Shown: positions 19,834 to 63,812, numbered from the stretch's first letter. The stretch: 64,000 nucleotides of DNA from Bacillota bacterium (GCA_021820465.1 JAKADP010000005.1:9661-73660); one strand, 5' to 3'. The notes: generated from the letters alone by a model not told the origin. Made by a program: numbers and translations.

Positions 19834-20193
19834 ATGATTCGCCTATACCACTACCGCGGGTGAAGCACGTGCGTGAGGGCGAAAGCGTGGCTTTCGCAGG
19901 CGTTGGCCGACCAGAAGCTGTCGGCCGCTTTGCTGGAGGAGCGGGATCTCATCCGCGACCCCCTGTCGGCCCACGAGGTGCACGACCTGGTGCGCCGGGC
20001 CGGCGGCATCGAGGCGGTGCTGGCGACCCGAAGCCCGGCGTACCGGGCGCGGGTGAGCGCCGTCGCCGATGAGGCCGGCTGGCTCTCAGCCATGGCCGAA
20101 GAGCCGCGGCTCATCCGCCGACCCATTCTGGAGACGGATCGGGGCATGGCGGTGGGCTTCTCCGAGGCCAATTGGCGGCGGCTGCTGGACTGA
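19834..20193 (+). CDS. ArsC/Spx-family thioredoxin-fold protein with in-frame TGA (19861-19863) at the first Cys of CxxC: candidate selenoprotein
   Basis: TAGGAGG (19821-19827), 6 nt, then ATG at 19834. The translation is MIRLYHYRG-[TGA]-STCVRAKAWLSQALADQ... and is open to 20193. It aligns with the Spx/ArsC N-terminus (M..LY....C..CRKA..WL). The track shows only the fragment starting at GTG 19873. Confidence 0.7.
19879..19897 (+). promoter_or_regulatory. SECIS-like hairpin
   Basis: GCGAAAGC-GUG-GCUUUCGC is an 8-bp perfect stem that starts 15 nt after the TGA. Confidence 0.55.
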
Positions 20194-20465
20194 CGGCCCC
20201 GCCCCGCGGCGGCCGGTCCCGCCACACCGTGCGCTCTACGACGGCCGCGAGCCTTCCAACACGGATGCCCCTGGCACTATCTTCCGCGGCAGCCGCCAGC
20301 CCCGCAGAGACGCCGTGCCGCGCAAAGCACGCGCCCTGCCTGGAGCATCTCCTGGAGCCGGGGACAAGCGGAAGCCGTCGGTCAGCGCCCGATCCATTGA
20401 CACGCCGCTATACTTAGAGAAGTGACTGGGGTTCTGAAGACGACGACAGCAAGGGGGTGGTGCGC

Positions 20466-21470
20466 ATGATGACGGAGCCGCTGACCCGACCCGCGCTGCA
20501 GGACAAGTTTGGACGGGTCGTCCACAAGCTGCGCATTTCCCTGACGGATCGGTGCAACTTTCGGTGTGTGTACTGCATGCCCGAGGATGCGGAGTTTCTT
20601 CCCCACGACGAGTTGCTGACCGCTGACGAGATTGTGCGGGTAGCCGGGCTATTTGCCGAAATGGGCGCGGACACGATTCGGCTTACCGGCGGGGAGCCGC
20701 TGATGCGGCCCGACGTTGTGGACATCACCCGGCGGCTGAAGCAGCTTCCCGGGGTGCATCGGGTGTCGATGACCACCAATGGGTTCATGCTACCGCGCCT
20801 GGCCGCTCCCTTGGTCCAGGCTGGCTTGGACGGCGTGAACGTGAGCCTCGACACCCTGGATCCGGTGCGGTTTCAAGTGCTGGCGCGCCGCCGCTACCTC
20901 AAGGAGGTGCTGGCGGGCATCCAGGCGGCCGAGGCGGCGGGGCTCACCCCGGTCAAAATCAACACGGTCGTCATGCGCGGTGTCAACGACAGCGAGATTG
21001 GGGAGTTTCTGGGGTGGGCCCGCGACACAGGGCACGTGGTCCGGTTCATTGAGTTTATGCCGCTGGACGCCGACAACATCTGGCAGCGGCAGACGGTGGT
21101 GACGCTGGCCGAAATTTTGGAGGTGGCGCGGAGCATCGGGCCGGTGGACGAAGTGGGAGAGGACAAGGCCAGCCCGGCGCGCCTGTATCGCTTTCGCGAC
21201 GGCCGCGGCACCTTCGGGGTAATCGCGTCGGTCTCGGAGCCGTTCTGTGCGGACTGCGACCGAGTGCGGCTCACGGCCGAAGGTCGGATTCGCAACTGCC
21301 TGTTTGCCACCGACGAGACCGACCTGCGGGCGCTGCTGCGCAACGGAGCAGACGACGAAGCGCTCGTCCAGCGGATGCGCGACGCGGTCGCCGAGAAGTG
21401 GGCCGGCCATCTCATTGCCCAGCCAGGCTTTGTCAAGCCGGAGCGCACCATGCACCGGATCGGCGGCTGA
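20466..21470 (+). CDS. moaA: GTP 3',8-cyclase (molybdenum cofactor biosynthesis protein A)
   Basis: The radical-SAM motif is LRISLTDRCNFRCVYCMP, and the C-terminal cluster Cys motif is CADCDRVRLTAEG. ATG at 20466 follows AAGGGGGTGG. The track start is GTG at 20457. Confidence 0.9.
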   Translation: MMTEPLTRPALQDKFGRVVHKLRISLTDRCNFRCVYCMPEDAEFLPHDELLTADEIVRVAGLFAEMGADTIRLTGGEPLMRPDVVDITRRLKQLPGVHRVSMTTNGFMLPRLAAPLVQAGLDGVNVSLDTLDPVRFQVLARRRYLKEVLAGIQAAEAAGLTPVKINTVVMRGVNDSEIGEFLGWARDTGHVVRFIEFMPLDADNIWQRQTVVTLAEILEVARSIGPVDEVGEDKASPARLYRFRDGRGTFGVIASVSEPFCADCDRVRLTAEGRIRNCLFATDETDLRALLRNGADDEALVQRMRDAVAEKWAGHLIAQPGFVKPERTMHRIGG

Positions 21471-22319
21471 TCACAGGGCCGTTGGCAGGCTCGTGAGCGC
21501 TTCGCGGTACTGGGACAAGCTTTCCGCCCGCTCGGGATCATTCTGGCTGTACAGCTGAATCAGGATCGTGAGCATGCGCACCAGCATGAACCGGGTGGGC
21601 GTGGGACTCAAGTACGAGGGATGATAGCCAAATCCGTTGGTCACCAGGAACTGCACGCAGTCGGCCCGGGACAAGATTTGGCCGCCATGGAACGGGTCAA
21701 TGAAAAAGGCGTCGTTGTACTGCAGCAGAAAGTGTCCCGGCATGCCAATGCCGGTCACAGGGAGCCGCAGCCGGCGCGCCAGCAGCAAGTAGACCGTGGC
21801 CAGCTGGATCGGCATCCCGAGCCGTCGGTCCAGCACGCGGTTCACATAGCAGTTGTCGGGATCGTAGTAGTTGTCTTCGTTGCCGCGAAACCCCAGCTCT
21901 CCGAAGAGATAGTCGTTCATCGCAGAAATCACGTCGCGTCCCTTGGGCAAGCCGCTCAGGCGAGTCGACAGGACGTCGGCCATCTCGTCGAGCTGCTGGT
22001 GGTAGTGGGCTCGGTCCAAGCCGGGGTATCCCGATTCGGCGACCAGCATGGCCCCGTCCTCCAAGTCCAGCCAGGGGGTGGGCAGGCTCGCAAACCGCTG
22101 AAACCGCGCGCCCAGCTCATCCAGCCGGAGTGTCTCCAAGATGCCGTACACGCGCGTGCGCACATGGGGGTCGTCCGCTTCCCGCGAAGCTTCCAGGTAG
22201 GGGCGAGCCTGCTGGCGCGCTTCCAATAAGGTTTGGCGCGCGATGCGGGCCGTCTTGATGTCGTCGTCGCCCAACAGCACAATCAGGGCCCGCAATTCGT
22301 TGTCGGTCCAGGTCTTCAT
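21471..22319 (-). CDS. transglutaminase-like / SirB1 (UPF0162) family protein
   Basis: 282 aa. The central segment NYYDP.N.Y.N.VL.RR.G.PI.L...Y....RRL..P..GIG.PGHF is characteristic of the SirB1/YchA family. Its stop abuts the moaA stop with no intergenic base. Confidence 0.7.
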   Translation of the reverse strand: MKTWTDNELRALIVLLGDDDIKTARIARQTLLEARQQARPYLEASREADDPHVRTRVYGILETLRLDELGARFQRFASLPTPWLDLEDGAMLVAESGYPGLDRAHYHQQLDEMADVLSTRLSGLPKGRDVISAMNDYLFGELGFRGNEDNYYDPDNCYVNRVLDRRLGMPIQLATVYLLLARRLRLPVTGIGMPGHFLLQYNDAFFIDPFHGGQILSRADCVQFLVTNGFGYHPSYLSPTPTRFMLVRMLTILIQLYSQNDPERAESLSQYREALTSLPTAL

Positions 22320-22504
22320 GCTCTCCCTCCCCCTTTGCCTCCGTGGACCCTATGAACCAGGTACGTCGGACAGACGGCTGCGGATTCACCAGCACTATAT
22401 GGCACGCGGCGATTCTTCGTCGACGCTCCTGGGGCTGCCATAGAAATTCGCCCTCCCAGCGCCGATTCCTGCTCCCGAGGCCATGGCCGTGCGAGCAATT
22501 GTTG

Positions 22505-22915
22505 TTAGAAGCCCCAGAGCCCGGTGGTGAATCCGCGGGCCGCCAGCAAAAACATCACAAAGATGAGAATAGCGTATACCAGCGGCTCGTTGAAGCGGCC
22601 GTAGTCCCGGGCCATGGCGTCGCGGAGCCCCCGCCCGGGCCTCAGGGCCTGCTCTACGAGGACGGCCAGCAGCAAGATGGCGCCGTACAAATAATGAAGC
22701 GGGTCCTTGGCGTGGCCCACGGTAAAATACAGCACGACGCCTGCCACCGCCTGGAGGCCGATGAGCCGGTCGACATGCGTGAGGCCGGTCCACACGGACG
22801 CCGGGACGGCCCCCGAGGGGCGGGCCCGAAACGTTGCGATGCTGAGCCCCAGCGTGCCAGCCATCAGCGCGATGGCAAACACCAGATGAACGTACACCAG
22901 CCACTGCACTTGCAT
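22505..22915 (-). CDS. small integral membrane protein, unknown function
   Basis: Four hydrophobic segments. The start is ATG at 22915 or GTG at 22909, after AGGAGGG. The upstream part of the track ORF is non-hydrophobic junk. Confidence 0.55.
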   Translation of the reverse strand: MQVQWLVYVHLVFAIALMAGTLGLSIATFRARPSGAVPASVWTGLTHVDRLIGLQAVAGVVLYFTVGHAKDPLHYLYGAILLLAVLVEQALRPGRGLRDAMARDYGRFNEPLVYAILIFVMFLLAARGFTTGLWGF

Positions 22916-23105
22916 CCCTCCTGGCCACTCGGGTCCAGGAGAGCTTCGCGCCCGGGGGCTGGGATCCTGCCGCCCCTGTCCCACAGGATTTCCCGCCGGG
23001 CTCTAAAAATTCCCCGGAGCCCAATTTTCGCCGAAGCAAGCGCTGGAGTAGAGTGGAGAGAGACTGGCCGGGCGGGCGTGACAAGGACCGCCAGAGGGGT
23101 GGACC

Positions 23106-24194
23106 ATGCTGACCGATGTCGTAATTGTCGGCGGAGGCCTCGTGGGCCTCATGACGGCCGAGCGCTTGGCGCGCGAAGGGTTGGACGTGACGCTGGTGGA
23201 CCGAGGGGAGCCCGGGGCCGGCTGGAGCGGCATTGGGCTGGTCGCGCCCGCCCTGGATGGTGCGGCTGCTCCCCCGCTGGTGGATCTGGTGGACGACGCG
23301 ATGCACCGATGGCCCGATTGGCTGGTGGATGCCGACCTGGCCGACCAGCTTCCCCTGGCAGCCGGGGTTCTGGCGGTGGCGGAGAGTCCCTTCCACCGCC
23401 AGGAGCTGGAGCGCGTGCGGCCGCGCGTGGAGCGGCGGCACCCCACGGCAGAGTGGCTGGCGGGCGGACACCTGGCGGAGGCGGTGCCGGGACTGGGGCG
23501 CCACATCGAGGCGGGCATGCTGCACCGCGACGCCCAGCGGGTGGACCCGCACCGCTTGGGCACGCTGCTGTGCGCCTCCCTCGTGCGCCGGGGGGGACGC
23601 GTTCGCTGGGGGACGCCGGCGCTGGCGCTCGACGTGCGCGGCGACCGCGTGCATGGCGTCCGACTGCCCGGCGAAATTCTCCCCGGCGGGGCCGTGGTGC
23701 TGGCCACGGGGGCTCAGGCGCCGGGACTGTGGCCAGAGGGGGCGGCTCCCTTGGCGTGGGCAGCCCAGCGCTGGACCACCGTCCTGCTGGACGGCGTGCC
23801 CGTGCCGCCGGTCGCGATTGTGGGGCGCGGGCGGCTGGTGGCGCCCCTGGACAGTGGCCACGTGGCGCTCGTGTCGGCCGCCGAGGGCAGCGACTACCGA
23901 GCCGGGGCGTCCGCGGCGACCCTCCGCCGGACGCTGGACGCGGCCGACCTTCTGCCGGCGGTGGCTGACGGGCGTGTGGTGGCCGTGGAGGCGTGGCTGG
24001 GCCCGGCGCCGGTGGACGGCCTGCCGCTGATGGGGGGCTGGGCGGGGCTGAGCGGGCTGGCAGTGGCGGTGGGGGCGGACGGGCATGGCCTCACGCTGGG
24101 CCCTCTCATGGCCGACGTGGTGTACGCGCTGCTGTTTGACATCGCGGTCCCGTTTAATTTGGCCCCATTTCGGCCAGACCGAGGGGAGGCATGA
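23106..24194 (+). CDS. FAD-dependent oxidoreductase (DAO/glycine-oxidase family)
   Basis: N-terminal dinucleotide fold DVVIVGGGLVGL, and a C-terminal GHGLTLGP motif. Confidence 0.8.
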   Translation: MLTDVVIVGGGLVGLMTAERLAREGLDVTLVDRGEPGAGWSGIGLVAPALDGAAAPPLVDLVDDAMHRWPDWLVDADLADQLPLAAGVLAVAESPFHRQELERVRPRVERRHPTAEWLAGGHLAEAVPGLGRHIEAGMLHRDAQRVDPHRLGTLLCASLVRRGGRVRWGTPALALDVRGDRVHGVRLPGEILPGGAVVLATGAQAPGLWPEGAAPLAWAAQRWTTVLLDGVPVPPVAIVGRGRLVAPLDSGHVALVSAAEGSDYRAGASAATLRRTLDAADLLPAVADGRVVAVEAWLGPAPVDGLPLMGGWAGLSGLAVAVGADGHGLTLGPLMADVVYALLFDIAVPFNLAPFRPDRGEA

Positions 24195-24297
24195 GGCCAA
24201 TCCCCGCGTCAGGAGGCCTCCGGGCGGTTTACGGCCGGGGGGAAGTTCGGTATCGTCTACCGATGCGTGCGGCCGGGCGATGGCAAGGGGGCTGGCG

Positions 24298-24909
24298 ATG
24301 AGCAACAATCCGTTCGATCGATCGGGGGCATCGGCCCCACAGGATCCGATGGAAGAGACGCGGCAAACGCTGGCGCACCTGGCGCGACTGACCATGGGGA
24401 TCCCCCCCGCCCACCTCATGGTGGGCTACCTGCTGGCCCATGCGGAGCGTGTGCGATTTACGCCTGCCTTAGATACCGAGGCGCCCTTGGCGATGGCATT
24501 TGGCGTACACCGCCGCATCGAGGTGCCGCTGGTTCCCTGGGAAGGGTTTGCCCACGGCGTGCCCATTCCCGATCCCCTGCTGTGGATTGAGGCGGCCCGC
24601 GGCCATACTCGCACCCCCATCGCCATCCGCGTCTCGACGGATGACCGGCTGCTGGGGGCCCTGCTGGCCCGGCACTTTGAGCGGCACCATGCCGGAGACG
24701 CCCGGCGCCAGCGCGAGGACCAGGTGCAGCGCCTGCGGCAGCAGGTGGATCAGACGCTGGACATCTACGCCGAGCTCAAGCGGCTGTTGGCGGACCCGGA
24801 CCGCGATGCCGACGGCCACCTCCCAGAATTTCTGCTGATGGCCGAGGAGCAGATGGCGCACCTCAGCCAAGAGCTGACCGCCTTGAAAGGGCAGATGAAC
24901 CCGTCGTAG
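24298..24909 (+). CDS. hypothetical protein with C-terminal coiled-coil-like segment
   Basis: ATG at 24298 follows AAGGGGG. The composition looks coding, and I recognise no motif. Confidence 0.55.
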   Translation: MSNNPFDRSGASAPQDPMEETRQTLAHLARLTMGIPPAHLMVGYLLAHAERVRFTPALDTEAPLAMAFGVHRRIEVPLVPWEGFAHGVPIPDPLLWIEAARGHTRTPIAIRVSTDDRLLGALLARHFERHHAGDARRQREDQVQRLRQQVDQTLDIYAELKRLLADPDRDADGHLPEFLLMAEEQMAHLSQELTALKGQMNPS

Positions 24910-24977
24910 CGGCTGGCCGAGTCTAGGAGACCCGCCGCAAAAAGCTTGTCCGGCGGGCGACGCGTGTCCGTGGGGGA

Positions 24978-28751: not shown

Positions 28752-28776
28752 CGCCCTCTCGTGAGGGACTGTCCGC

Positions 28777-32430: not shown

Positions 32431-32448
32431 GTCTGCCTCCTGCATCCC

Positions 32449-32694
32449 TTAACGGCCGAGCCGCCGCTCCATCTCCTGGCGATTGAACCCGATGATCAGG
32501 TCCTCCCGCCCGTCCGGCCACTGCAGCACGGTGGTGGGCGTGGACCGGGATCCCAGCGCCATCAGCTGGTCAATGTACTCCGGATTGTCGGGCAGATTCA
32601 GCTCGGTGAACACATAACCCGCTTGAGAAAGCCACGCTTTCTCCGTTTCGCAGGCACCTCACCCCGGTTGGGTGAATACCCGGATGACTGGCAT
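32449..32694 (-). CDS. glutaredoxin/NrdH-like protein with in-frame TGA (complement of 32659-32661) at the first Cys of CxxC: candidate selenoprotein
   Basis: My own translation is MPVIRVFTQPG-[TGA]-GACETEKAWLSQAGYVFTELNLPDNPEYIDQLMALGSRSTPTTVLQWPDGREDLIIGFNRQEMERRLGR. This is the glutaredoxin fold pattern (beta1, CxxC, a cis-Pro region TP, then GF). Both halves are below the track size cut-off. Confidence 0.7.
32625..32643 (-). promoter_or_regulatory. SECIS-like hairpin
   Basis: GAGAAAGC-GUG-GCUUUCUC is an 8-bp perfect stem that starts 15 nt after the TGA. The geometry is the same as at 19879-19897. Confidence 0.55.
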
Positions 32695-33022
32695 CGTCGT
32701 CTCGCTGGCCACCTATCTCACATCTTTTCTGTTCCAATTCGACTTGGCCGAATGCGCGGAGCCGCCAATCTTCTGCCTCTCGGCAGCGCCGTGGCTCTAT
32801 TATACGATAGTGGGGGGCGCCGGCCGCCCGGGTCCACGCGTCTCTGATCTTCGGAAAGTGCCAGGATGGCCGAACATGCCGTTCGCTCCGGAGCAGGACC
32901 CGGGCCGGGCGGCGCGAAGCCGGGCGATGGGAGCCGGAGATGCGGCGGCCGGGGCCGCTCCCGCACCCACGGGGAGAGCGCGGAGTCCAGCGAGCACGAC
33001 GAGAGCGAGGAGCGTGACACAT

Positions 33023-35232: not shown

Positions 35233-35982
35233 ATGGGAGAGCCGATCGAGACGCTGGATGGATGGTTCGTGTGGCACCAGCTCACCACGGTGGACTGGCC
35301 CACGTGGTGGGGGTGGCCCCCGGCGGATCGGGACGCGGCGATGGCCGAGCGGCTGCTCCTGTGGGAGGCATGGACCGCGCTGGCGGGCAACCAGCAAGGC
35401 AGTGTGGGTGTATATCAAATGGCGGGCGACCGCGCCGACTTCCTGACGATTCACCTGCGGCCGACGCTGGATGAGCTCATTGATCTGAAGGCGTCGCTGC
35501 AGCGAACAGCGTTTTACGCCGTGGAGCGGCCGCACTACTCGTACATATCCGTTGTCGAACTGGCGACCTACGTGGCCAAGGGCAACCCGGATCCCGAAAC
35601 CAATCCGGAGCTTCGGGCGCGCCTGCACCCGAGCCTGCCGCCCCGGCACGCCGTGTGCTTCTACCCCATGTCCAAGCGGCGCCAAGGGGCGGACAACTGG
35701 TACATGACGGATCGGGCGGCGCGAGCCCATCTCATGCGAGGCCATGGCGCCGTGGGACACAAGTACAGCCAGCAGGTGACACAGATCATCTCCGGATCCC
35801 AGGGGCTGGACGACTGGGAGTGGGGCGTCACCCTGCTGGCCGACGACCCCATCTGGTTTAAAAAGTTAGTGTACGAAATGCGCTTTGACGAGGCCAGCGC
35901 CCGGTTCGCGGAGTTTGGCCCGTTTTACGTGGGCACGCGGCTGGATCCCCAGGGATGGACCCGGCGCCTGGGGGGGCGGTGA
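35233..35982 (+). CDS. hemQ: coproheme decarboxylase (HemQ/ChdC, chlorite-dismutase-like)
   Basis: The internal ATG at 35233 gives MGEPIETLDGWFVWHQL... The protein also shows CFYPMSKRR..G.NWY and the MRFDEASARFAEFGPFYVG C-terminus. Confidence 0.9.
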   Translation: MGEPIETLDGWFVWHQLTTVDWPTWWGWPPADRDAAMAERLLLWEAWTALAGNQQGSVGVYQMAGDRADFLTIHLRPTLDELIDLKASLQRTAFYAVERPHYSYISVVELATYVAKGNPDPETNPELRARLHPSLPPRHAVCFYPMSKRRQGADNWYMTDRAARAHLMRGHGAVGHKYSQQVTQIISGSQGLDDWEWGVTLLADDPIWFKKLVYEMRFDEASARFAEFGPFYVGTRLDPQGWTRRLGGR

Positions 35983-37037
35983 GCCGCCGGCCGACCCCGC
36001 GACTGCTCACGGCCCTGGCGGGGGGAGTTCCTGACCGCACGCCGGTGTGGTTCATGCGGCAGGCGGGCCGGTATCAGCCGGCCTATCGGGCGCTGCGCGC
36101 CCGCTACAGCATGCTGGAGCTGGCCAGCACGCCGGCGCTGGCCGCCGAAGTGACGGTGGCGCCCGTGAGGGATCTGGGGGTTGATGCCGCGATCTTGTTT
36201 TCCGACATCATGGTGCCCATGGGCCCCGCAGGCGTCGCCTTTGAGATTCAAGAGGGGGTTGGGCCCGTGGTGGCCCGCCCCATCCGCGACGCGGCGGCGG
36301 TGGCGGCGCTGCGCGAGGTGGACCCCGCGCGCGATTTGCCGGAGGTGCTGGAAGCGGTGGAGCGCTCGACGGCCGCCCTGGGGGGGGTGCCGCTGATTGG
36401 CTTTGCCGGGGCGCCGTTTACGCTGGCGAGCTATCTCATCGAAGGCCGCCCCAGCCGGCAGTACGTGGAAACGAAGCGCCTCATGTGGAGCGACCCTGGG
36501 CTGTGGGACGCCCTCATGGAGCACTTGTCGCGCGTCGTGGGCGCGCACCTGGCGGCCCAGGCCCACGCCGGGGCGTCGGTGCTGCAGGTGTTCGACAGCT
36601 GGGCGGGCGCGCTGTCGCGGGCGGACTACCAGGCCCGGGTGGCGCCTCACATGCGGCGCCTGTTTGCCCAGCTGGCCCCGCTGGGCGTGCCGGTCATTTC
36701 CTTCGCCGTGGGCGCGTCCCATCTGGTGGAGGTGATGGCCGACGGCCCCACCGCCTTGTCTGTGGATTGGCGAGAGCCCCTGGGGCATGTCCGGCAGCGG
36801 GTGCCGCGGGGCATGCCCCTGCAAGGCAATTTGGACCCCGTGGCGCTGTTGGCGCCATGGCCCCATCTGGTCAGCCAGGCAGAAGCCGTGCTGGCCGAGG
36901 GAGGGAGCCAGGGATTCGTCTTCAACCTGGGCCATGGCATTCTGCCGTCCACGGATCCGGACACGGTGCGGCGGCTGGTCCAGTGGGTTCATGATGCGGC
37001 GGCGCCCGGTCGGACAGACGGGGGGGCCCGCCCATGA
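35979..37037 (+). CDS. hemE: uroporphyrinogen decarboxylase
   Basis: Motifs PVWFMRQAGRY and ILFSDI. GTG at 35979 overlaps the hemQ stop (GTGA). The track start is at 35955. Confidence 0.9.
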   Translation: MSRRPTPRLLTALAGGVPDRTPVWFMRQAGRYQPAYRALRARYSMLELASTPALAAEVTVAPVRDLGVDAAILFSDIMVPMGPAGVAFEIQEGVGPVVARPIRDAAAVAALREVDPARDLPEVLEAVERSTAALGGVPLIGFAGAPFTLASYLIEGRPSRQYVETKRLMWSDPGLWDALMEHLSRVVGAHLAAQAHAGASVLQVFDSWAGALSRADYQARVAPHMRRLFAQLAPLGVPVISFAVGASHLVEVMADGPTALSVDWREPLGHVRQRVPRGMPLQGNLDPVALLAPWPHLVSQAEAVLAEGGSQGFVFNLGHGILPSTDPDTVRRLVQWVHDAAAPGRTDGGARP

Positions 37038-43010: not shown

Positions 43011-43484
43011 ATGGAGCCCCGCATCATCCCCGAGTTTCAAACCGAAGACATTCACGGCACGCCGTTTCGGGCCTCGGATTTGGTGGCGCGCGCGCCCGTG
43101 CTGGTGGTGATGCTGCGCGGGCTGTTCTGACCGTACTGCCGGCGGCAGCTCGTGCAGCTGCGCGACCAGTACGCGGCCTTGCGGGCGGCGGGCATCCAGG
43201 TGGTGGCTATCGGGCCGGACCGCCCGCAGGCGCTCCGCGCCCACTTTGAGAAGGAGCGCCTGCCCTTCGAGGCGATTGCGGACCCCTCCCAGCAGGTGCT
43301 GAAGGCGCTGGGCCAGCAGTATCGGTGGTACACGGTGGGGCTCCTGCCCGCCATGCTGGCCATTGCCCCGTCGGGGGCGGTCGTGTGGCAGCACTATGCG
43401 AAGAGTCCTCAGGATCTCCCCAGCCTGACCGAGGCCGCGGCGGCCCTGGGCCGGCGGCTGGACCATCAGGGCCAGGACGCGTAG
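43011..43484 (+). CDS. AhpC/TSA (peroxiredoxin-like) thioredoxin-fold protein with in-frame TGA (43128-43130) at the first Cys of CxxC: candidate selenoprotein
   Basis: GGGGAGG, 7 nt, then ATG at 43011. The translation is MEPRIIPEFQTEDIHGTPFRASDLVARAPVLVVMLRGLF-[TGA]-PYCRRQLVQLRDQYAALRAAGIQVVAIGPD... This matches the family pattern vvLvFyRG.WCPyC..qL. The track lists only 43152..43484. Confidence 0.7.
43145..43161 (+). promoter_or_regulatory. SECIS-like hairpin
   Basis: GCAGCU-CGUGC-AGCUGC is a 6-bp stem that starts 14 nt after the TGA, with GUG in the loop. Confidence 0.4.
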
Positions 43485-44989: not shown

Positions 44990-46054
44990 TCACAAGAGAA
45001 AGTGCGCCACCACGCCCGTGAGAAGACCGGCCACCAGCACCAAGGTGGCCAGCCGCGCCAAGTCCGCCTTCGAGATGGCCTGGCTCACCATAGCCATGGA
45101 CGGCAGGCTGATGGCGGGCAGCGTCATCATGAGGGCGCCACCCGCCATGCTGGACAGGCCATAACTCATGAGGGACGAGACGATGGGAATTTCCCCCGCG
45201 GTGGGAATGACAAACAGCGTGCCCGCGATGGCTAGGCCGAAAAACAGCAGGACGCTCTCCCCGAGCCCCGGACCCATCGCGGGAAACAGCCAGGCGCGCA
45301 CCGCGCCCAGCACCCCCACGATGATGAGGTACTCCGGCACCAAGGTCCGCGCCAGCCGCGCCAGCGCCTTGAAGAACCGCGCCGGCCGCGAGCCGGTCTG
45401 CGCGGGGGCGGGCACGTCAACCTGGTGGGCGACGGCGGCGGCTTCGGCCCTCGTGGCCCAGCGGTTTCCGATGTACGCAGCACCCGCCACCAGGAGGAGT
45501 CCCATCCCAATCCGCAGGAGCGCCCAATTCCATCCCAGCACGAAGCCCATAAAGACGATGGTGGCGGGGTTCAGCACCGGGTTGCCCACCCAGTACGCAA
45601 AGACGGCGCCGGTGGACACGTTCTGGCGCTTCAAGCTCACGGCAATGGGGGCCGAGCAGCACGTGCACATCATGGACGGCACGGCCGCAGCGGCCGCGAC
45701 GCCCGCCGCCCCCCAGTTGGCCCGGCCCAGCAGCGTCACCAGCCAGCCGTCCGGCAGGAGCGACTCGATGCCGGCGGCAATGACCATGCCAGCAATAAAC
45801 GCGATCCAAATGTCCTTCACGTAGGCGACGGCATAGGATATGGCGGCGGCCACGCCCACGGGGGGGGCGGCGCGATGCGTGCCCGTCACGATGGACGCCC
45901 CCAGCGTGTGCGAGGTGGCGACCGCAAACGCCTTCACGAAGTAGGGGCTCCACTTGGCGATGAAAATCCCCGCCAGCGCCAGCAGGATGAACGCCACCAC
46001 CGGCCATACGCCGGACGGCCTTGCCGGGCGGACGGGCGTTTCCAGTGAATTCAC
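44990..46054 (-). CDS. predicted permease (ArsP/DUF318-type, Cys-rich TM motif)
   Basis: Multi-TM protein with VPSMMCTCCSAPIAVSL. GTG at 46054 follows GGGGAGGA with a 6-nt spacer. Confidence 0.8.
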   Translation of the reverse strand: MNSLETPVRPARPSGVWPVVAFILLALAGIFIAKWSPYFVKAFAVATSHTLGASIVTGTHRAAPPVGVAAAISYAVAYVKDIWIAFIAGMVIAAGIESLLPDGWLVTLLGRANWGAAGVAAAAAVPSMMCTCCSAPIAVSLKRQNVSTGAVFAYWVGNPVLNPATIVFMGFVLGWNWALLRIGMGLLLVAGAAYIGNRWATRAEAAAVAHQVDVPAPAQTGSRPARFFKALARLARTLVPEYLIIVGVLGAVRAWLFPAMGPGLGESVLLFFGLAIAGTLFVIPTAGEIPIVSSLMSYGLSSMAGGALMMTLPAISLPSMAMVSQAISKADLARLATLVLVAGLLTGVVAHFLL

Positions 46055-47286: not shown

Positions 47287-47601
47287 ATGAGTGATGTGAT
47301 GGAAATGGGGCAGGCCACATTTGACGAAGTGCTGGCGTCGGGGCGCCCCGTGGTGGTGGACTTTTGGGCACCCTGGTGTGGGCCGTGCCGCGTCCTGTCG
47401 CCACTGGTCGAAGAGGTGGCGGCGGACCAGCGAGGGGCGGTCACCGTGGGCAAGGTGAACGTGGACGAGCACCCAGACTTGGCCAGCCGCTACGGCGTCA
47501 TGAGCATCCCCTCGGTGATACGCTTCGACGAGGGCCGTGAAACCCACCGGGTGGTGGGGGCCGTCAGCAAGCCTGAACTGCTGCGCCGCCTGGGACTGTA
47601 G
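47287..47601 (+). CDS. trxA: thioredoxin
   Basis: The active site is VDFWAPWCGPCR, and GVMSIPSV carries the cis-Pro. Confidence 0.9.
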   Translation: MSDVMEMGQATFDEVLASGRPVVVDFWAPWCGPCRVLSPLVEEVAADQRGAVTVGKVNVDEHPDLASRYGVMSIPSVIRFDEGRETHRVVGAVSKPELLRRLGL

Positions 47602-48090: not shown

Positions 48091-48142
48091 CCCCGCATGC
48101 GAGAGAGGCGCACCCCAAGGTGCGCCTCTCTCGCATGCGGGG
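48091..48142. terminator. perfect 24-bp inverted repeat between convergent genes (bidirectional terminator candidate)
   Basis: CCCCGCATGCGAGAGAGGCGCACC - CCAA - GGTGCGCCTCTCTCGCATGCGGGG. It ends 2 nt before the ptrB stop. Confidence 0.7.
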
Positions 48143-50415: not shown

Positions 50416-51303
50416 ATGCCGGATCGCAAGACGCTGGCGTACGTCGGCGCCACGCTGCTGTTGTGGTCGTCGGCGTTTGCCGGCATTCGCAGTGCGCTGG
50501 GGGGGCTGTCGCCGGGGCACGTGCTCCTGCTGCGGTTTGGCATCGCGTCGTTAGTTCTCCTGGGATGGACCCGGGCCGCCCGGCTGCCCTGGCCGCCTCG
50601 GCGGCTCGTCGCCCGCCTGGCTCTGATTGGCGTCGTGGGCATTTCCCTCTATCAAGGCTGCCTCACCTTTGGGGAGCAGATGGTCCCGGCGGGGACCGCC
50701 AGCTTCATCGTGGCAGCCGCCCCGGTGTTCACGGCGCTGCTGGCGGCGCTGTGGCTGGCCGAGCGGCTCTCCCGCCGGACCCTACTCGGGCTGGCGGTCA
50801 GCATGCTGGGCGTGGCGGTCATCAGCTTCGGATCGGGATCGGCAGCGTTTCATCAGCGTGCGCTCCTCATCGTGGCGGCGGCCATCGCGACTGCCGTCTT
50901 CTTTGTGGCGCAGAAGCCACTGTTGGGCCAATATCCGGCCCTGGCGGTGACGGCCTGGGTGACCTGGGCGGGGACGCTGCCGCTCTTGGTGTTTGCCCCA
51001 GGCCTGGCGGCCAACGTGGCGCACGCCCCGCCCGCCGCGGTCTGGTCGGTGGTGTATTTGGGCGTGCTGCCTGCGGCGGTCGCGTATGTGCTGTGGGCGC
51101 ACGCCCTCCAGCGGGCCCCGGCTGGGCAGGTGTCCACCTGGCTCTACCTGAACCCCTTTCTCGCGACAGCCATTGGGTGGGTGTGGCTGGGCGAGGTGCC
51201 AGCCTGGACAGCGCTGGCAGGCGGCGTGGTCGCCGTCGCGGGCGTGGTGCTGGTGAACTGGCGGCCTGTGCGTGCGACACCGCCCTCTGCCGCCCCGTCT
51301 TGA
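50416..51303 (+). CDS. EamA/DMT family transporter
   Basis: Ten TM-like segments, with LLWSSAF at the N-terminus. The start is the internal ATG at 50416, after GGGGGAG. Confidence 0.85.
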   Translation: MPDRKTLAYVGATLLLWSSAFAGIRSALGGLSPGHVLLLRFGIASLVLLGWTRAARLPWPPRRLVARLALIGVVGISLYQGCLTFGEQMVPAGTASFIVAAAPVFTALLAALWLAERLSRRTLLGLAVSMLGVAVISFGSGSAAFHQRALLIVAAAIATAVFFVAQKPLLGQYPALAVTAWVTWAGTLPLLVFAPGLAANVAHAPPAAVWSVVYLGVLPAAVAYVLWAHALQRAPAGQVSTWLYLNPFLATAIGWVWLGEVPAWTALAGGVVAVAGVVLVNWRPVRATPPSAAPS

Positions 51304-57437: not shown

Positions 57438-57446
57438 CGTGGCACG

Positions 57447-58196: not shown

Positions 58197-58360
58197 CCAC
58201 GGCCTCGCGGTGCCTGGCGCCTGGCGCTGCCGCCGGGCACGCACCACGTCCGTAGGCTACGCGGCCGCCCGACTTCTGCCACCGGCGTATTTCGGGACGC
58301 GCCTGCATACAGCACACCGACCCGGAGCGATAGGGTGCCGGGCAGGGGGGACGTGCACGC

Positions 58361-59089
58361 ATGCAGCGGGAACCGGCGTGGCGATGGCTGGCCGCGGCCG
58401 CAGGGCTTGCGGTGGCGCTGGCGGCTTACGGGATGGGGTCGCGGCTGTCGGCGGCGGCCAGCCGGCCCGCGCCGGTCATCATTCGGGCGCCCATCGCCGA
58501 GCGGGTGCTGGCGCTGACGTTTGACGACGGGCCCACCGCCCGATGGACGCCGAAAATTCTGCGAGTGCTGCGGCAGAGCCACATCCCGGCCACGTTTTTT
58601 GTGATTGGGCGGCAGGCCGAGCGCTATCCGGCGCTCGTAGCCCAGGAAGTTCGGGACGGAATGGAAGTGGGAAGCCACGGGTACAACCACCTGGGGCTCT
58701 TCGGCCGGAGCGCCGCTGTGGTGGCTGCCGAGGTGGAGCAGGCCCAGCAGGCCATCGTGGCGGCCGGCGCGCCGGCGCCCACGCTGTATCGCATGCCGGC
58801 AGGGATTTACGATCAGACGGCGCTGTCGGTGCTGGGCGGGCTCCACTACGTGGTGGTGGGCTGGAGCATCGATCCGAGGGACTGGCGGCACCGCTACACC
58901 GCGGCGGCCATGGCGACGCTGGTGGAAAATCAGGCGGAACCCGGCGCGATCATTATTTTCCACGATGGCCCCACTGGCGGCCCGGCCACCGTGGAGGCCG
59001 TCCAGCAGCTGATTCCCGTGCTCCAGCGCGAAGGGTACCGCTTCCTCACGGTGTCTGCCATGGTGAAGCTGGTCAAGGGCCGCCTATAG
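58361..59089 (+). CDS. polysaccharide deacetylase (NodB family)
   Basis: Motifs TFDDGP, HIPATFF, GSHGYNH and LYRMP. Confidence 0.85.
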   Translation: MQREPAWRWLAAAAGLAVALAAYGMGSRLSAAASRPAPVIIRAPIAERVLALTFDDGPTARWTPKILRVLRQSHIPATFFVIGRQAERYPALVAQEVRDGMEVGSHGYNHLGLFGRSAAVVAAEVEQAQQAIVAAGAPAPTLYRMPAGIYDQTALSVLGGLHYVVVGWSIDPRDWRHRYTAAAMATLVENQAEPGAIIIFHDGPTGGPATVEAVQQLIPVLQREGYRFLTVSAMVKLVKGRL

Positions 59090-60188
59090 CGCCTTGGGGA
59101 TTCAGCGTCCCCGGCATTTGATGGTCGAACGCCAGGACGTCCACCGTGGGAGCAATGGTCCCATAACCCCAATTCAGCAGGGATTCGGCGTCCGCGTACT
59201 CGGTGGCAAACAGCTGCGCATGCAGCAGCACGCCCACCAGCGTCACAGGGTAGCCGTTGACGGTCCGCTGGGCTGCGAACACCAGCGTGCAGGCCGCCTG
59301 GCTCGTCCACCCGGTCTTCAGTCCAATGACCGTGGGGTCGCGCCACAAAATGCCGTTGATGTTAATCACGATCGGGTTATTGGGCAGGCTTGCGGTTTTG
59401 GTGCGCATAATCTGGCGCAGCACCGGGATCTGGAGGTCCAGCTCGGCCAGCCGCAGCAGGTCGCCGGCGCTGGACGAGGACCCAGGAGAGATGCCGTCGG
59501 GGTCGGCGTAGTGCGTGTGGTGCAGGCCGAGCGACTGGGCGGTGCGGTTCATGAGGGCCACAAAGGCCGCCGTGTGGCCCGAGACGGCCTGGGCCAGCGC
59601 CACGGCTGCGTCGTTGGCCGATACCATCAGCATGCCGGTCAGCAGCTGGCGCACCGTGAACCGCTCTCCGGGATACATGCGCATGTCCGAGCCGCCGGTC
59701 GCGGCCGCGGATGGGGAGATGACCACGACTTGGTTCATGGGGAGGCTTTCTGCCACCAGATAGGCCGTCATCAACTTCGTGGTGGACGCGATGGGACCCT
59801 GCTGCGTAATGTTTTTGGCGTAAAGGAGCTGGGGTTGGCCATAGATGGCCAGAACGGCATCGGGCTCGTGCAACGGGAACGGGAGGGACGTCCCCGCGGG
59901 GATCCAGCGAATGGGGCGGGTCGACCGGGCGGCGTGGGCGGCGGCCACGGCTCGGAGCGCGGCCCGTCCCGGGCGGGGCGGGGCGGCGGCCCGCGAGGAG
60001 TGCCACGCGAGGGATCCCAAGATGCCGCCGGCGGCCAGCACAGCCAGGGTTGCAGCGACGCGGTGCCCCAACGAACGGCGGAATGATGTACGGCGTGCCA
60101 CCGGTGTCCCCCCGGACTTGAGATGTGGGGGCCGCCCGCCGCGCTGGTGCGGACGCTTGGGCTCCCCCAGGGGATGGCGTCCGGCCAT
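59073..60188 (-). CDS. D-alanyl-D-alanine carboxypeptidase (S11 penicillin-binding protein)
   Basis: ASTTK is the SxxK motif, SAND is the SxN motif, and KTG appears in LKTGWT. Confidence 0.85.
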   Translation of the reverse strand: MAGRHPLGEPKRPHQRGGRPPHLKSGGTPVARRTSFRRSLGHRVAATLAVLAAGGILGSLAWHSSRAAAPPRPGRAALRAVAAAHAARSTRPIRWIPAGTSLPFPLHEPDAVLAIYGQPQLLYAKNITQQGPIASTTKLMTAYLVAESLPMNQVVVISPSAAATGGSDMRMYPGERFTVRQLLTGMLMVSANDAAVALAQAVSGHTAAFVALMNRTAQSLGLHHTHYADPDGISPGSSSSAGDLLRLAELDLQIPVLRQIMRTKTASLPNNPIVININGILWRDPTVIGLKTGWTSQAACTLVFAAQRTVNGYPVTLVGVLLHAQLFATEYADAESLLNWGYGTIAPTVDVLAFDHQMPGTLNPQGAIGGP

Positions 60189-60227
60189 CCCACGGTGCTG
60201 GACCGATTCTGGACCGATTGTACACAG

Positions 60228-60686
60228 TCAGGGGTCGGTCTGCATGGGCGGGGAGGCGGGGCGCGTCCCCGCGCGCTGTCGCTGATGGGCCACAAAGCGC
60301 TCCCACCAGGCGGGATCTCGGTCCGCCAGATCCAACAGCGCCTCGATGGCGGACAGCGCCTCCCCATCGATGAAGTGCTCGATGCCCTCGACAATGTCGT
60401 GGATGCGGGCGGGATCCCGGAGGCCCAACTGCTGCAGAAACCGCTCCAGCATCTCATGGCGCGCCGCCAGCGACCGCCCGCGCCCCTCGCCCAGGGCGGT
60501 GAGGGTCAGTCCCCGATAGCGCTCATATTTCAACAGGCCGTCTTGGTCCAAGCGGCGCACCATCTTGCTGGCCGACGCGACAGACAGATGGAGGCGGGCC
60601 GCAATGTCGCTCACTCGTGCCGCGCCGCGGTCACGGGTCAAAATCCAAATGGCCTCCAAATAATCCTCGCGGCTGGGGCTGGCCAT
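60228..60686 (-). CDS. mntR: MntR/DtxR-family metal-dependent transcriptional regulator
   Basis: Motifs REDYLEAIW, VSDIAARL.VS..S..KMV.RL...G.L and HE.LE.FL. Confidence 0.85.
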   Translation of the reverse strand: MASPSREDYLEAIWILTRDRGAARVSDIAARLHLSVASASKMVRRLDQDGLLKYERYRGLTLTALGEGRGRSLAARHEMLERFLQQLGLRDPARIHDIVEGIEHFIDGEALSAIEALLDLADRDPAWWERFVAHQRQRAGTRPASPPMQTDP

Positions 60687-60826
60687 CTCATCGCCTCCTC
60701 GCGGCGGGCCGGTTCATTGGTTCCTAGAATATGGGAATATGTGGCGGGCGAACCCTCTGGGCGCACTTTGTTTGCAGGTTCTTCATGTTTGAGCGGCGTC
60801 GGGAGGTTAGAATACGCCCGGGAGGG

Positions 60827-62020
60827 ATGGCGACGGACGTGCTGACGCGGCTGGTGCATCCGCCGCGGGTGACGGTGGTGGATTCCCCGACGGTGCCGCC
60901 GCTGTATGCCTCGACCACGTACAGCACAGAGGCGCTGGATCGAATTGACGACGTGCTGGGAGGGCGCGAGGCGGGCTTTCAGTACAGCCGGCAGGGCAAC
61001 CCGACCGTGGCGGCCCTGGAAGGAGCGCTGGCTGACCTGGAAGAAGCCAGCTGGGCCGTGGTGGTCGCGTCCGGCATGGCCGCCATTGCGGCGGCGCTGG
61101 AGGCTGCCGTGCCGCCCGGGGCCACGGTGCTGGCGGCCGAGGAACTTTACGGCGCGACCGACGGGCTGCTGACGCGCTGGCGGGACCGGGGGCGCATCAC
61201 CTTGGCGCGCGCGTCCGTCGGCAGCCAGGGGGCCTTTCTCGACGCGATTGCGCGAGAGCGGCCCGCGGTCGTATTTGTGGAGAGCGCGTCGAATCCTTTG
61301 TTGCGGGTTGCCGACGTGCCAGCCTTAGCCGATGCGGTGCACCGGGTGCAGGGTCGCCTGGTGGTGGACAACACATTTCTATCGCCGCTGGTGCTGGCGC
61401 CCGTGGCCTCGGGTGCTGATGTAGTGGTGGAGAGCCTCACCAAGTTCGTGGGCGGCCATGGGGACGTGACTGCCGGCGTCGTGGCCGGGGTGGATCCCGC
61501 GTTGGGGCGCGCCGTCTTGGCGCACCGCACGCACGCGGGTGCGGCGGCGTCGCCGTTTGACGCGTGGCTGGCGGCGCGCGGCCTGAAGACGCTGGGGCTG
61601 CGCCTCGAGCGCCAGATGGCGAGCGCGGCGGCGCTGGCGGCGCGATTGGCCGCCGCGGGGATCGCGACCTGGTATCCCGGGCTCGCGAGCCATCCGGATC
61701 ACGCCACGGCGGCGCGGCTGTGGCGGGGAGGATTTGGTGCGCTGCTGTCCGTGGACCTTGCGGGCGGGCGCCCGGCCGTCGAGGCGGCATGGCGGGCGTT
61801 TCGGCTGTGGGGGCGAGGCACGACGCTCGGGGACGTGGAGTCCCTGGCGCTGTACCCTGCGGTGGCGAGCCACCGTGGATTGTCCCCAGAGGAGCGGGCG
61901 GCGCGGGGCATCGGCCCGGGGCTGTTGCGGCTGTCTGTGGGAATAGAGGCCGTGGACGATTTGTGGGGAGATTTGGCGATGGCTCTGGGTGTTCCTCGGC
62001 GGCCGAATGCTGTACCCTAG
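60827..62020 (+). CDS. PLP-dependent Cys/Met-metabolism enzyme (cystathionine gamma-synthase/lyase family)
   Basis: Motifs YSRQGNPT, DNTF and SLTKFVGGH (the PLP lysine). The start is the internal ATG at 60827. Confidence 0.8.
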   Translation: MATDVLTRLVHPPRVTVVDSPTVPPLYASTTYSTEALDRIDDVLGGREAGFQYSRQGNPTVAALEGALADLEEASWAVVVASGMAAIAAALEAAVPPGATVLAAEELYGATDGLLTRWRDRGRITLARASVGSQGAFLDAIARERPAVVFVESASNPLLRVADVPALADAVHRVQGRLVVDNTFLSPLVLAPVASGADVVVESLTKFVGGHGDVTAGVVAGVDPALGRAVLAHRTHAGAAASPFDAWLAARGLKTLGLRLERQMASAAALAARLAAAGIATWYPGLASHPDHATAARLWRGGFGALLSVDLAGGRPAVEAAWRAFRLWGRGTTLGDVESLALYPAVASHRGLSPEERAARGIGPGLLRLSVGIEAVDDLWGDLAMALGVPRRPNAVP

Positions 62021-62127
62021 AGAAATATCGTATACGAATGGTTGGCACGTGGTTGACACGTGGTTGGCAGGGCGCGGCGCGCGCCGAGGTCCGCTTGAGT
62101 CAGTCGGCAGCTGGAGGGACAGAACTA

Positions 62128-63297
62128 GTGCGAGTGTTGGTGTTGGGCGCAGACGGATATTTGGGGTGGCCGACGGCGCTGCATCTGTCGGCGCGCGGTT
62201 TTGATGTGGGTGTGGCCGACAATTTTGTGCGGCGCCTCTGGGATCAGGAACTGGGTGTGGACAGCTTGGTGCCCATCACCGGCTTTCACGAGCGGATTCG
62301 CGCGTGGAAGGATGTGAGCGGCAAAACCCTGGAGCCATTCGTGGGCGACTTGAACAACTATCCCTTCGTGGCCGATATGCTGGCCCGCTTTCGACCGGAC
62401 GCCATCGTGCACTTTGCGGAGCAGCGCTCCGCGCCTTATTCGATGATTGACCGCGACCATGCCGTGTTCACGCAGGTCAACAATGTCGTGGGGACGCTGA
62501 ACCTGCTGTACGCCATGGCTGACGTGGTGCCCGCGTGCCACCTGGTGAAGCTGGGCAGCATGGGGGAGTACGGCACCCCCAACATCGATATCGAAGAAGG
62601 CTTCATCGAAATCACGCACAAGGGGCGGCGGGATGTCCTCCCGTTTCCCAAGCAGCCGGGCTCGTTCTACCACTTGTCCAAAGTTCACGACAGCCACAAC
62701 ATCATGTTTGCCTGCCGGACGTGGGGGCTAAAGTCTACCGATCTGAACCAAGGCATCGTGTACGGGGCGGAGACCGAGGAAACGGCACTGGATCCACGCC
62801 TAGCCACGCGCTTTGACTATGACGGCGTGTTTGGGACAGTGCTGAACCGATTTTGCGTCCAGGCGGTCGTCAACCATCCGCTGACCGTGTATGGCACCGG
62901 CGGGCAGACGCGTGGGATGCTGGACGTGCGGGACACGGTGCGGTGCATCGAGCTCGCATGCGTGAACCCTCCGGCCCAAGGAGAGTACCGCGTGTTCAAC
63001 CAGTTCACGGAGGAGTTCACGCTGACCCAACTGGCCCAGCTCGTGAAGGAGCTCCGTCCCGCGACCCAGATTGAGTACCTGGAAAATCCTCGCGTGGAGG
63101 CGCCTGAGCACTACTACCACGCGCAGCACACCCACCTGATGGACTTGGGCCTAGAGCCTCATCTGCTGTCGGACACCTTGCTGCACCAGGTATTTGGCGT
63201 GGTGGAGCGCCATCGCGACCGCGTCAACCTGGCGGCGATCCGCCCCGCGGTGAACTGGCGCCAGGCGCACCAGCTGGCCGGGTCCCCGCGCGGCTAA
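62128..63297 (+). CDS. sqdB: UDP-sulfoquinovose synthase-like NAD-dependent epimerase/dehydratase
   Basis: Motifs VLGADGYLGWP, SMGEYGTPNIDIEEG, LPFPKQPGSFYHLSKVHDS and LNQGIVYG, as in SQD1/SqdB. GTG at 62128 follows GGAGGG. The upstream part of the track ORF is junk. Confidence 0.8.
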   Translation: MRVLVLGADGYLGWPTALHLSARGFDVGVADNFVRRLWDQELGVDSLVPITGFHERIRAWKDVSGKTLEPFVGDLNNYPFVADMLARFRPDAIVHFAEQRSAPYSMIDRDHAVFTQVNNVVGTLNLLYAMADVVPACHLVKLGSMGEYGTPNIDIEEGFIEITHKGRRDVLPFPKQPGSFYHLSKVHDSHNIMFACRTWGLKSTDLNQGIVYGAETEETALDPRLATRFDYDGVFGTVLNRFCVQAVVNHPLTVYGTGGQTRGMLDVRDTVRCIELACVNPPAQGEYRVFNQFTEEFTLTQLAQLVKELRPATQIEYLENPRVEAPEHYYHAQHTHLMDLGLEPHLLSDTLLHQVFGVVERHRDRVNLAAIRPAVNWRQAHQLAGSPRG

Positions 63298-63300
63298 GCG

Positions 63301-63349
63301 CCGTGCCCGTCGAGGGAGGGTGGCTCCTCCCTTGATGGGCGGCGCACGG
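63301..63349. terminator. hairpin between convergent sqdB-like and peroxiredoxin genes
   Basis: The outer stem is CCGTGC/GCACGG. The inner stem is AGGGAGG/CCTCCCT with loop GTGGCT. Confidence 0.5.
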
Positions 63350-63350
63350 G

Positions 63351-63812
63351 TCACGGCAGCGCGGCAAGCACCTCCTCGGGCTCCGGCAGTTCCTCCGCGC
63401 CGTACACGTTGACAAACTCGAGGGTGCCATCGGCACCCACCACCAGCACGGCGCGGTCGGCCATGCCATCGTCGCGGAGCACGCCATAACGTTTCAGCAT
63501 CGCCCCGTGGGGCCAAAAGTCACTGGCCAGCGGATAGGTGAGCCCGCCCAGACTTTTCGCCCACGCTTCGTTGCAGGGAACAGAATCGACACTAACGCCC
63601 ACGACCTGGGCGCCCACCGCTCTAAAGCGCGCCTCGGCGCGGCTGAAGGCGGGAATCTCATTGGTTCAGACAGGCGTCCAGGCCAGCGGGTAGCATACCA
63701 GCACGAGCCGGTGCCCCGCATAGTCCGCCAGCCGAATGGCTCGGCCACCCGTGCCGGGCAGGGTGAACGCCGGTGCCCGGCTGCCCACCTTCAAGGTCTT
63801 CGTGTGATTCAT
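63351..63812 (-). CDS. AhpE/PrxU-like peroxiredoxin with in-frame TGA (complement of 63666-63668) at the peroxidatic Cys: candidate selenoprotein
   Basis: AAGGAG, 6 nt, then ATG at 63812. The translation is MNHTKTLKVGSRAPAFTLPGTGGRAIRLADYAGHRLVLVCYPLAWTPV-[TGA]-TNEIPAFSRAEARFRAVGAQVVGVSVDS... It matches the Prx motif YPLAFTPVCT.E. The track lists only 63351..63617. Confidence 0.7.

Follow-up and report, generated by a model that had tools for sequence, protein, structure and literature searches.

Catalogued bacterial selenoproteins include peroxiredoxins (Prx; TxxU motif, where U is selenocysteine or Sec), glutaredoxins (Grx; UxxC), peroxiredoxin-like thiol:disulfide oxidoreductases (UxxC or UxxU), and ArsC-like proteins (UxxC) (PMC13188914 Table 1; PMC1794560 Table 1). 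Here we describe four genes for thioredoxin-fold proteins of these kinds, each with an in-frame TGA, in a stretch of 64,000 nucleotides (nt) from a Bacillota bacterium (GCA_021820465.1, JAKADP010000005.1:9661-73660). We will refer to the whole stretch as the window and to the genes as C1 (ArsC/Spx-like), C2 (Grx/NrdH-like), C3 (ResA/SelL-related, with an AhpC-TSA fold), and C4 (AhpE-like peroxiredoxin). Comparison of these sequences with their relatives makes it highly probable that all four are genuine selenoprotein genes whose internal UGA is decoded as Sec. Because all four families were already catalogued, C1-C4 would be additional members of known families. An earlier reading of the window (the sequence-only reading) had judged these families to be plausible as selenoproteins, and both catalogues list all four (PMC13188914, PMC1794560).

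In bacteria, Sec insertion depends on a hairpin in the mRNA (the Sec insertion sequence or SECIS), whose apical loop is expected to be small, to have G in its first two positions, and to lie 16-37 nt from the UGA (PMC13188914). C1 shares the PF03960 fold, the N-terminal UxxC, and an EEPRLIRRP motif with the ArsC-like selenoproteins (NF041106, TIGR01617), and the fixed offset of its SECIS (+19 to +37) is also that of 60 family members from metagenomes. C1 differs from the ArsC-like selenoproteins in that it scores below the cut-offs of both models and, in this lineage, lies in an operon with a Fur-family gene. The solved structures that best match C1 are Spx/MgsR of Bacillota (PDB 1Z3E, 3GFK; E = 1.8e-9, full length), which have a CxxC at residues 10-13 and share the TRS and RRPI motifs with C1. 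However, C1 does not have the Spx C-terminal extension and is below the family cut-offs; a regulatory role for C1 via binding to RNA polymerase would be pure speculation.

C2 resembles the selenoprotein Grx (for example, Grx from Clostridium oremlandii, cited in PMC13188914) and NrdH/YruB in its short length and thioredoxin fold, its N-terminal UxxC, and its TP motif with cis-Pro. Unlike Grx, its N-terminal half is more Spx-like than Grx-like (the top PDB match is 3L78), and its SECIS is of the ArsC type. C3 is similar to the Prx-like Sec oxidoreductases (PF00578), SelL-related proteins, and ResA in its AhpC-TSA fold and in having UxxC at the position of the ResA CxxC, but it scores below the cut-off for the SelL-related redox protein (NF040769). 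C4 has its predicted Sec at the peroxidatic position (PxxxTxxC), as do the selenoprotein Prx of the TxxU type (PrxU of Eubacterium acidaminophilum) and, with Cys, AhpE from Mycobacterium tuberculosis (MtAhpE; PDB 1XXU/1XVW), which C4 also resembles in size and sequence.

Four genes with one in-frame TGA each

The window is 68.6% GC, and we read TGA as a sense codon to expose open frames. In the frames opened this way, C1, C2, C3, and C4 each have exactly one in-frame TGA, with the coordinates and families that the sequence-only reading gave:

19834..20193, + strand: C1, candidate ArsC/Spx-like (PF03960) selenoprotein gene; 119 codons, UxxC, ATG start, own stop TGA
19861..19863, + strand: predicted Sec codon TGA of C1; context MIRLYHYRG-U-STCVRAKAWLSQA (begins STC)
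32449..32712, - strand: C2, candidate Grx/NrdH-like (PF00462) selenoprotein gene; 87 codons from GTG 32712, UxxC, TAA stop
32659..32661, - strand: predicted Sec codon TGA of C2, at the first CxxC position; context VFTQPG-U-GACETEKAWLSQA (begins GAC)
43011..43484, + strand: C3, candidate selenoprotein gene for a ResA/SelL-related thiol:disulfide oxidoreductase with the AhpC/TSA fold; 157 codons, UxxC, ATG start, TAG stop
43128..43130, + strand: predicted Sec codon TGA of C3; context LRGLF-U-PYCRRQ
63351..63812, - strand: C4, candidate AhpE-like peroxiredoxin selenoprotein gene; 153 codons, TPVU motif, ATG at 63812, own stop TGA
63666..63668, - strand: predicted Sec codon TGA of C4; context YPLAWTPV-U-TNEIP

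The outer limits of the region under study, 19834 and 63812, are the ATG codons of C1 and C4. C1 has a GGAGG ribosome-binding site 7 nt upstream of its ATG. As the start of C2, the GTG at 32712 seems more likely than the ATG at 32694, which is ATA in a sister species; the upstream GTG is kept in 3 of 3 species.

With U written as C, all four predicted proteins pass the gathering scores of Pfam profiles: C1 matches ArsC (PF03960) over the whole domain (48.8 bits, cut-off 24), C2 matches Glutaredoxin (PF00462; 32.5 bits, cut-off 22.9) with its CxxC at the start of helix 1, and C3 and C4 match AhpC-TSA (PF00578; 72.9 and 113.1 bits, cut-off 26).

As the sequence-only reading had suspected, open reading frame (ORF) calling truncates or splits all four genes, and only fragments appear in the ORF listing for the window and in public gene calls. 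In the latter, C1 is a fragment of 106 (or 89) amino acids, C2 is a fragment of 54 amino acids or is missing, C3 is split into 39 and 110 amino acids, and C4 is split into 48 and 88 amino acids. The close relatives in a collection of 5.8 billion proteins all end at the TGA as well (70-99% identity for C3, 50-99% for C1, and 81-99% for C4). Full-length forms with Cys are found only at 52% identity or less for C4 (the closest are 45-52% identical, and many of these are Prx-Grx fusions) and at about 41% for C1. For C3 there are 7 close relatives, all of them TGA-truncated and all from the same lineage, and a word-indexed search at E-values up to 1e-8 found no relative with Cys.

The TGAs fall on redox-active cysteines

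In all four genes, the UGA is paired with a conserved redox-active Cys of homologous proteins. In alignments to solved structures, the U of C1 falls on Cys10 of the CxxC of Spx from B. subtilis; the U of C2 falls on the first Cys of the CxxC in glutaredoxin, NrdH, and Spx; the U of C3 falls on the first Cys of the ResA CxxC; and the U of C4 falls on the peroxidatic Cys of MtAhpE (E = 5e-22, residues 8-140). At the same column, homologues of C1 have Cys (as in P0164 and P0165), with YRRCSTC or YSRCTTC, homologues of C2 read RGCVPC or DGCGPC, and homologues of C4 read PLAWTPVCT. C4 has the PLAxTxxC context of the AhpE type along with its full-length similarity to MtAhpE.

The sequence-only reading had placed every TGA at the redox-active Cys column. 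This holds for 4 of 4 genes by alignment to structures or homologues, with a correction for C3, whose U opens a ResA-type UxxC and is off the peroxidatic column. When C3 is compared with the true peroxiredoxin BCP, its U falls on the Ser/Thr of TxxC, and the following Cys falls on the peroxidatic Cys. Thus, C3 probably acts as a UxxC thiol:disulfide oxidoreductase rather than as a peroxidase that uses Sec as its peroxidatic residue; nor does it qualify as a peroxiredoxin proper, in which U or C occupies the peroxidatic position of PxxxT/SxxC.

Chance nonsense mutations are an implausible source of this pattern, as had been argued from the window alone. We estimate that random nonsense mutations would hit one set column in each of four proteins of 80-155 residues with a probability of the order of 1e-8, and the TGAs are kept across species.

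Conservation and selection on both sides of the TGAs

All four TGAs recur in many independent assemblies of the same species (in ENA, Logan, and NCBI) and also in related species that are 12-25% diverged. (Loci from related contigs are labelled L.) The TGA of C1 is conserved in L007/L009 (88% nucleotide identity), L054, L057, and L058; that of C2 in L038 and L039; that of C3 in L038, L039, L138, and L140; and that of C4 in L032, the sole other species available for C4. Furthermore, when an alignment of C1 relatives was used to scan metagenomes, the scan gave 80 ArsC-like loci, of which 77 begin their UxxC with TGA.

We used Nei-Gojobori counts, with the flanks before and after the TGA taken separately, to estimate selection. 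On either side of each TGA, downstream flanks included, the proportion of non-synonymous changes (pN) is far below the proportion of synonymous changes (pS), so the flanks evolve under purifying selection. Upstream of the TGA, C1 has just nine codons, with 4 synonymous and 0 non-synonymous changes (pS of 0.65 versus pN of 0.00); C3 has pS of 0.31-0.35 versus pN of 0.12-0.18; and the 48 codons of C4 have pS of 0.72 versus pN of 0.22. This implies that both pieces of each gene are translated in one frame, and we take the one-frame evolution of both flanks to exclude pseudogenes, assembly artefacts, and separately initiated fragments. Pooled over the genes, the 16 codons that follow the TGA have a synonymous divergence of about 0.26, and the codons further downstream have about 0.45.

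Hairpins downstream of the TGAs

All four genes have a hairpin that fits the bacterial SECIS rule at 20-29 nt downstream of the TGA:

19879..19897, + strand: SECIS core of C1; 8-base-pair (bp) stem GCGAAAGC/GCUUUCGC, GUG loop, 23 nt from UGA to loop
32625..32643, - strand: SECIS core of C2; GAGAAAGC-GUG-GCUUUCUC, 8-bp stem, 23 nt from UGA to loop
43145..43161, + strand: SECIS candidate of C3; GCAGCU-CGUGC-AGCUGC, 20 nt from UGA to loop
63613..63653, - strand: SECIS candidate of C4; bulged hairpin with apical CGCGC-CGAG-GCGCG, 29 nt from UGA to loop

For the hairpin type of C1 and C2, there is evidence from covariation. We aligned 63 distinct sequences without gaps over the stretch that runs from the TGA to +48; C1, C2, and their orthologues were included. 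Across columns 19-26/30-37, 82% of cells are paired, versus 68% after shuffling, and the covariation score is 0.439 versus 0.216 for shuffled alignments (0 of 500 shuffles scored as high). As a control, we shifted the 3' pairing partners by 1-3 columns, which gave scores of 0.12-0.21. Individual changes include a compensatory G-C to A-U change in the C1 hairpin of L054, at the cost of replacing Ser with Leu, and an A-U to G-U change in the C2 hairpin of L039.

We also scanned the window and the lineage loci with a covariance model for the ArsC-type SECIS (R1). Only C1 and C2 were found, and the C2 hairpin scored 41.7 bits. In the window, which has 1,297 TGA triplets, the 8-bp stems of C1 and C2 rank in the top 2%: perfect stems that meet the rule and have at least 5, at least 6, or at least 8 bp follow 28%, 13%, and 2% of the triplets, respectively. 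As for C3, its stem is unchanged in 5 species, with substitutions confined to the loop, versus a synonymous divergence elsewhere of 0.3-0.6. The C4 hairpin has the weakest support as a SECIS among the four.

The hairpins of C1 and C2 have an identical 15-nt centre (GAAAGCGTGGCTTTC, encoding KAWLS), and their stems differ at one pair (C-G in C1, A-U in C2). The peptide KAWLSQA and the centre of the SECIS are thus common to two genes that are not orthologous. From the sequences, this likeness could reflect either shared descent of a module comprising the UxxC and helix 1 or convergence on a hairpin that SelB prefers.

Two other matches to R1 were noted. The match at 60749-60785 (- strand; 14.6 bits, E = 0.018) is kept in L033 but is probably due to chance; it is intergenic and lies upstream of a gene for a repressor of the DtxR/MntR family (PF01325/PF02742). 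A GC-rich palindrome at 48092-48141, between a cupin gene and a convergent gene for an S9 peptidase, matches R1 on both strands and is likely a bidirectional terminator. No Rfam family matched the window at the gathering thresholds, and at E-values up to 5, positions 19000-64000 gave only three weak unrelated matches.

In L141 (3001-3255; Logan SRR25885126), which comes from another organism in the same series of samples, a Grx-like homologue has TGG (Trp) at the position of the C2 TGA (QPG-W-GAC). It is followed by a SECIS-like relic, AGAUAGC-GUG-GCUUUCU, with one mismatch, and a truncated call for GRDB (glycine reductase B) is nearby on the contig. To judge by its sequence, L141 looks like a replacement of Sec by Trp through a single base. 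We rejected the idea that Trp in Grx-like homologues was TGA mistranslated under code 4, as the DNA of P0176 has a real TGG.

Proposed decoding of the internal UGA codons

We propose that each of the four mRNAs has one UGA, at the position of the homologues' nucleophilic active-site Cys, that would be decoded as Sec. The hairpin 20-29 nt downstream would act as the bacterial SECIS and recruit SelB with Sec-tRNA(Sec) to the ribosome, while UGAs that do not have such a hairpin, including the real stop codons of two of the four genes, would end translation. The predicted products are, for C1, a UxxC protein of the ArsC/Spx family that would be co-transcribed with a Fur-family regulator; for C2, a UxxC protein similar to glutaredoxin or NrdH; for C3, a ResA/SelL-related UxxC thiol:disulfide oxidoreductase of the AhpC-TSA fold; and for C4, an AhpE-like peroxiredoxin with Sec as its peroxidatic residue. 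The host, which seems to respire oxygen, would be expected to have selA, selB, selC, and selD, and the four proteins might contribute to the reduction of peroxides and disulfides.

Several observations weigh against this proposal. First, none of the four candidates reaches the selenoprotein-specific cut-offs of NCBIfam (4 of 4 are below). C1 scores 28.4 bits against ArsC_rel_Se_1 (NF041106, cut-off 85), and its metagenomic relatives (24-45 bits) also fail; C1 scores 55.9 bits against TIGR01617 (arsC_related; Spx/MgsR; cut-off 75.05), which some metagenomic relatives pass (77-82 bits). The wider group of TGA-bearing ArsC-like proteins likewise fails NF041106, and its nearest model is TIGR01617. 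C2 is below the cut-offs for Uxx_star (34.3 versus 66), NrdH (37.6 versus 85.8), and YruB (41.2 versus 88.6). C3 scores 63.2 bits against the SelL-related redox protein (NF040769, cut-off 120) and covers profile positions 3-99 of 173. C4 scores 54.4 bits against PrxU (NF040737); because the cut-off for this model is 270, C4 is not an orthologue of PrxU. Annotation pipelines overlook these genes because they do not reach the cut-offs of these models.

Second, the hairpins of C3 and C4 are less distinctive: perfect stems as long as theirs (6 bp for C3 and 5 bp for C4) follow 13% and 28% of random TGAs, respectively. The C3 stem has no covariation because it is invariant. The C4 hairpin in L032 has one compensatory pair and one mismatch, and the loop becomes GGUG. 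Also, the regions downstream of the four TGAs have unremarkable folding energies compared to dinucleotide shuffles (z = +0.29, -1.64, +0.04, and -0.63); at 68.6% GC, such z-scores from single sequences are uninformative, so we relied on the comparative evidence instead. Third, the window and the related loci, to which the search was confined, showed none of selA, selB, selC, or selD, and ARAGORN, run on the window and on 17 related loci, found no tRNA and hence no tRNA-Sec.

The machinery bears on the alternative that fares best, which is that SECIS and SelB direct read-through of the same UGAs with another amino acid: Cys might be inserted by a tRNA-Sec-like tRNA(Cys), or onto tRNA-Sec when selenium is scarce. 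Cys-inserting tRNAs that are similar to tRNA-Sec do occur in some bacteria. The sequence data give a conserved, recoded UGA with a hairpin and are silent on the inserted residue, and no Sec machinery was seen in the loci at hand. But TGA has been kept at four sites, in several species, and in 77 of the 80 ArsC-like loci, which is sensible only if the product mostly does not have Cys at this position, and the Cys forms of the same families simply carry TGC or TGT. We consider insertion of another residue to be improbable, and Sec remains the preferred reading.

Another potential explanation is that these genes are pseudogenes or that the TGAs are errors of sequencing or assembly. The gene callers do give fragments, and metagenome-assembled genomes (MAGs) can contain errors. 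However, the same TGAs are present in independent assemblies, from other samples, and from species that are 12-25% diverged, with mostly synonymous divergence, so the TGA sites are not assembly errors, a possibility that the sequence-only reading had raised against itself. Together with pN far below pS on both sides and the implausibility of four chance matches to active sites, this makes decay or error very improbable.

It is just as hard to believe that translation really stops at the internal UGA and that each downstream ORF yields a shorter protein that is initiated on its own and does not have the active-site residue. Downstream GTG and ATG codons are present, and gene callers use them, but the upstream pieces (9-50 codons) are conserved as protein in the same frame. 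These pieces provide beta-strand 1 and the active-site motif, which leaves the downstream fragments with no catalytic residue.

Finally, reassignment of TGA to a sense codon such as Trp or Gly, for which one could cite only the Trp (TGG) at this column in the Grx-like homologue from another organism, is the least probable explanation of all and is refuted by the use of stop codons, because TGA is an ordinary stop codon here: it ends rpsI (...PQFSKR-TGA, stop at 14913-14915), hemQ (stop at 35982), hemE (stop at 37037), about 25 of about 62 coding-like ORFs (around 40%, more than any other stop codon in the window), and also C1 and C4, as the sequence-only reading had concluded from the first three of these genes; and in-frame TGAs were found only at the four sites, by a scan that is insensitive.

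That scan, for read-through ORFs, was based on GC content at third codon positions (GC3). It recovered only C1 and C3, and otherwise noise that looked non-coding, so it is too insensitive to exclude a fifth gene. In-frame TGA junctions at 51301-51303 and 60228-60230 turned out to be ordinary gene boundaries.

Organism and gene neighbourhood

The window matches MAG contigs of an uncultured lineage, such as a 152-kb contig of GCA_027343685.1. In clustering at 90% identity or above, its ribosomal protein L13 groups with one labelled Thermaerobacter sp., and among species representatives, "Bacillota bacterium" DS3.bin47 and TL1-2.bin45 are nearest.

19332..19823, + strand: Fur-family regulator gene; ends 10 nt before the ATG of C1

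The gene order fur-C1-moaA is kept in at least 4 species of the lineage (including L054 9468-10318 and L057 168-961), and the marine ArsC-like loci do not have the link to fur. The Fur protein is nearest to Bacillus-type Fur, but at 89.6 bits it is below the cut-off of 220. In a sister species (L007 13164-16100), a nucleotidyltransferase gene and transposase fragments (Transposase_mut, IS110) replace moaA downstream of the ArsC-like gene.

C4 adjoins a methyltransferase gene and a complete operon for a caa3-type cytochrome c oxidase (COX2, COX1, COX3, COX4, and CtaG; L033 2900-8650, about 0.3-6 kb past the right end of the window). This implies that the host has the genes for respiring oxygen.

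Implications

The practical value of these results is for annotation: four redox enzymes, complete with their active sites, are now stored in public databases as fragments that are catalytically meaningless. Because curated selenoprotein-specific models catch none of the four, the mis-annotation would persist. Our analysis reveals neither a new mechanism nor a new family, but it would extend the use of Sec to an uncultured, high-GC clade of Bacillota. Aerobes rarely retain selenoproteins (PMC13188914), and a caa3 operon beside the gene for a putative Sec-peroxiredoxin bears on this view. Also, the ArsC-like and Grx-like genes have in common a SECIS hairpin at a fixed offset, which constrains the helix that it encodes (KAWLSQ).

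A genome with at least 6 selenoprotein genes is considered "selenoprotein-rich" (PMC1794560), and the published maxima are 31-63 selenoprotein genes per genome. Four genes per 64 kb is a high local density compared to these maxima. It is plausible that this genome reaches the threshold of at least 6 genes, extrapolating from the window and about 20 kb of flanking sequence (about 84 kb in all). A bolder idea is that C1 is a selenium-based redox switch or regulator, not just a reductase, and that, with C2-C4, it belongs to an antioxidant selenoproteome of unusual size in a high-GC Bacillota lineage that respires oxygen; we think this is unlikely. A density of 4 per 64 kb, should it hold genome-wide, would exceed the published maximum of 63 genes.

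Other genes in the window

Between the candidates lie a hemQ-hemE-hemH-hemY cluster and an ordinary thioredoxin with Cys (WCGPC, 47287-47601). A permease of the ArsP_1 family (44990-46054, - strand) has a faint match to SaoE (31.5 bits, far short of the cut-off of 325), which we do not count as evidence; SaoE is the efflux component of a recently described Sec-assisted organometallic system. At about 11300-13630, between an acetyltransferase gene and rplM, the window has extra genes that a sister species lacks (L007 5558-6623). These encode a 223-amino-acid protein with no Pfam domain, a CsoR-type repressor (Trns_repr_metal), and a 79-amino-acid protein paired with a PIN-domain protein, which are probably a toxin-antitoxin system.

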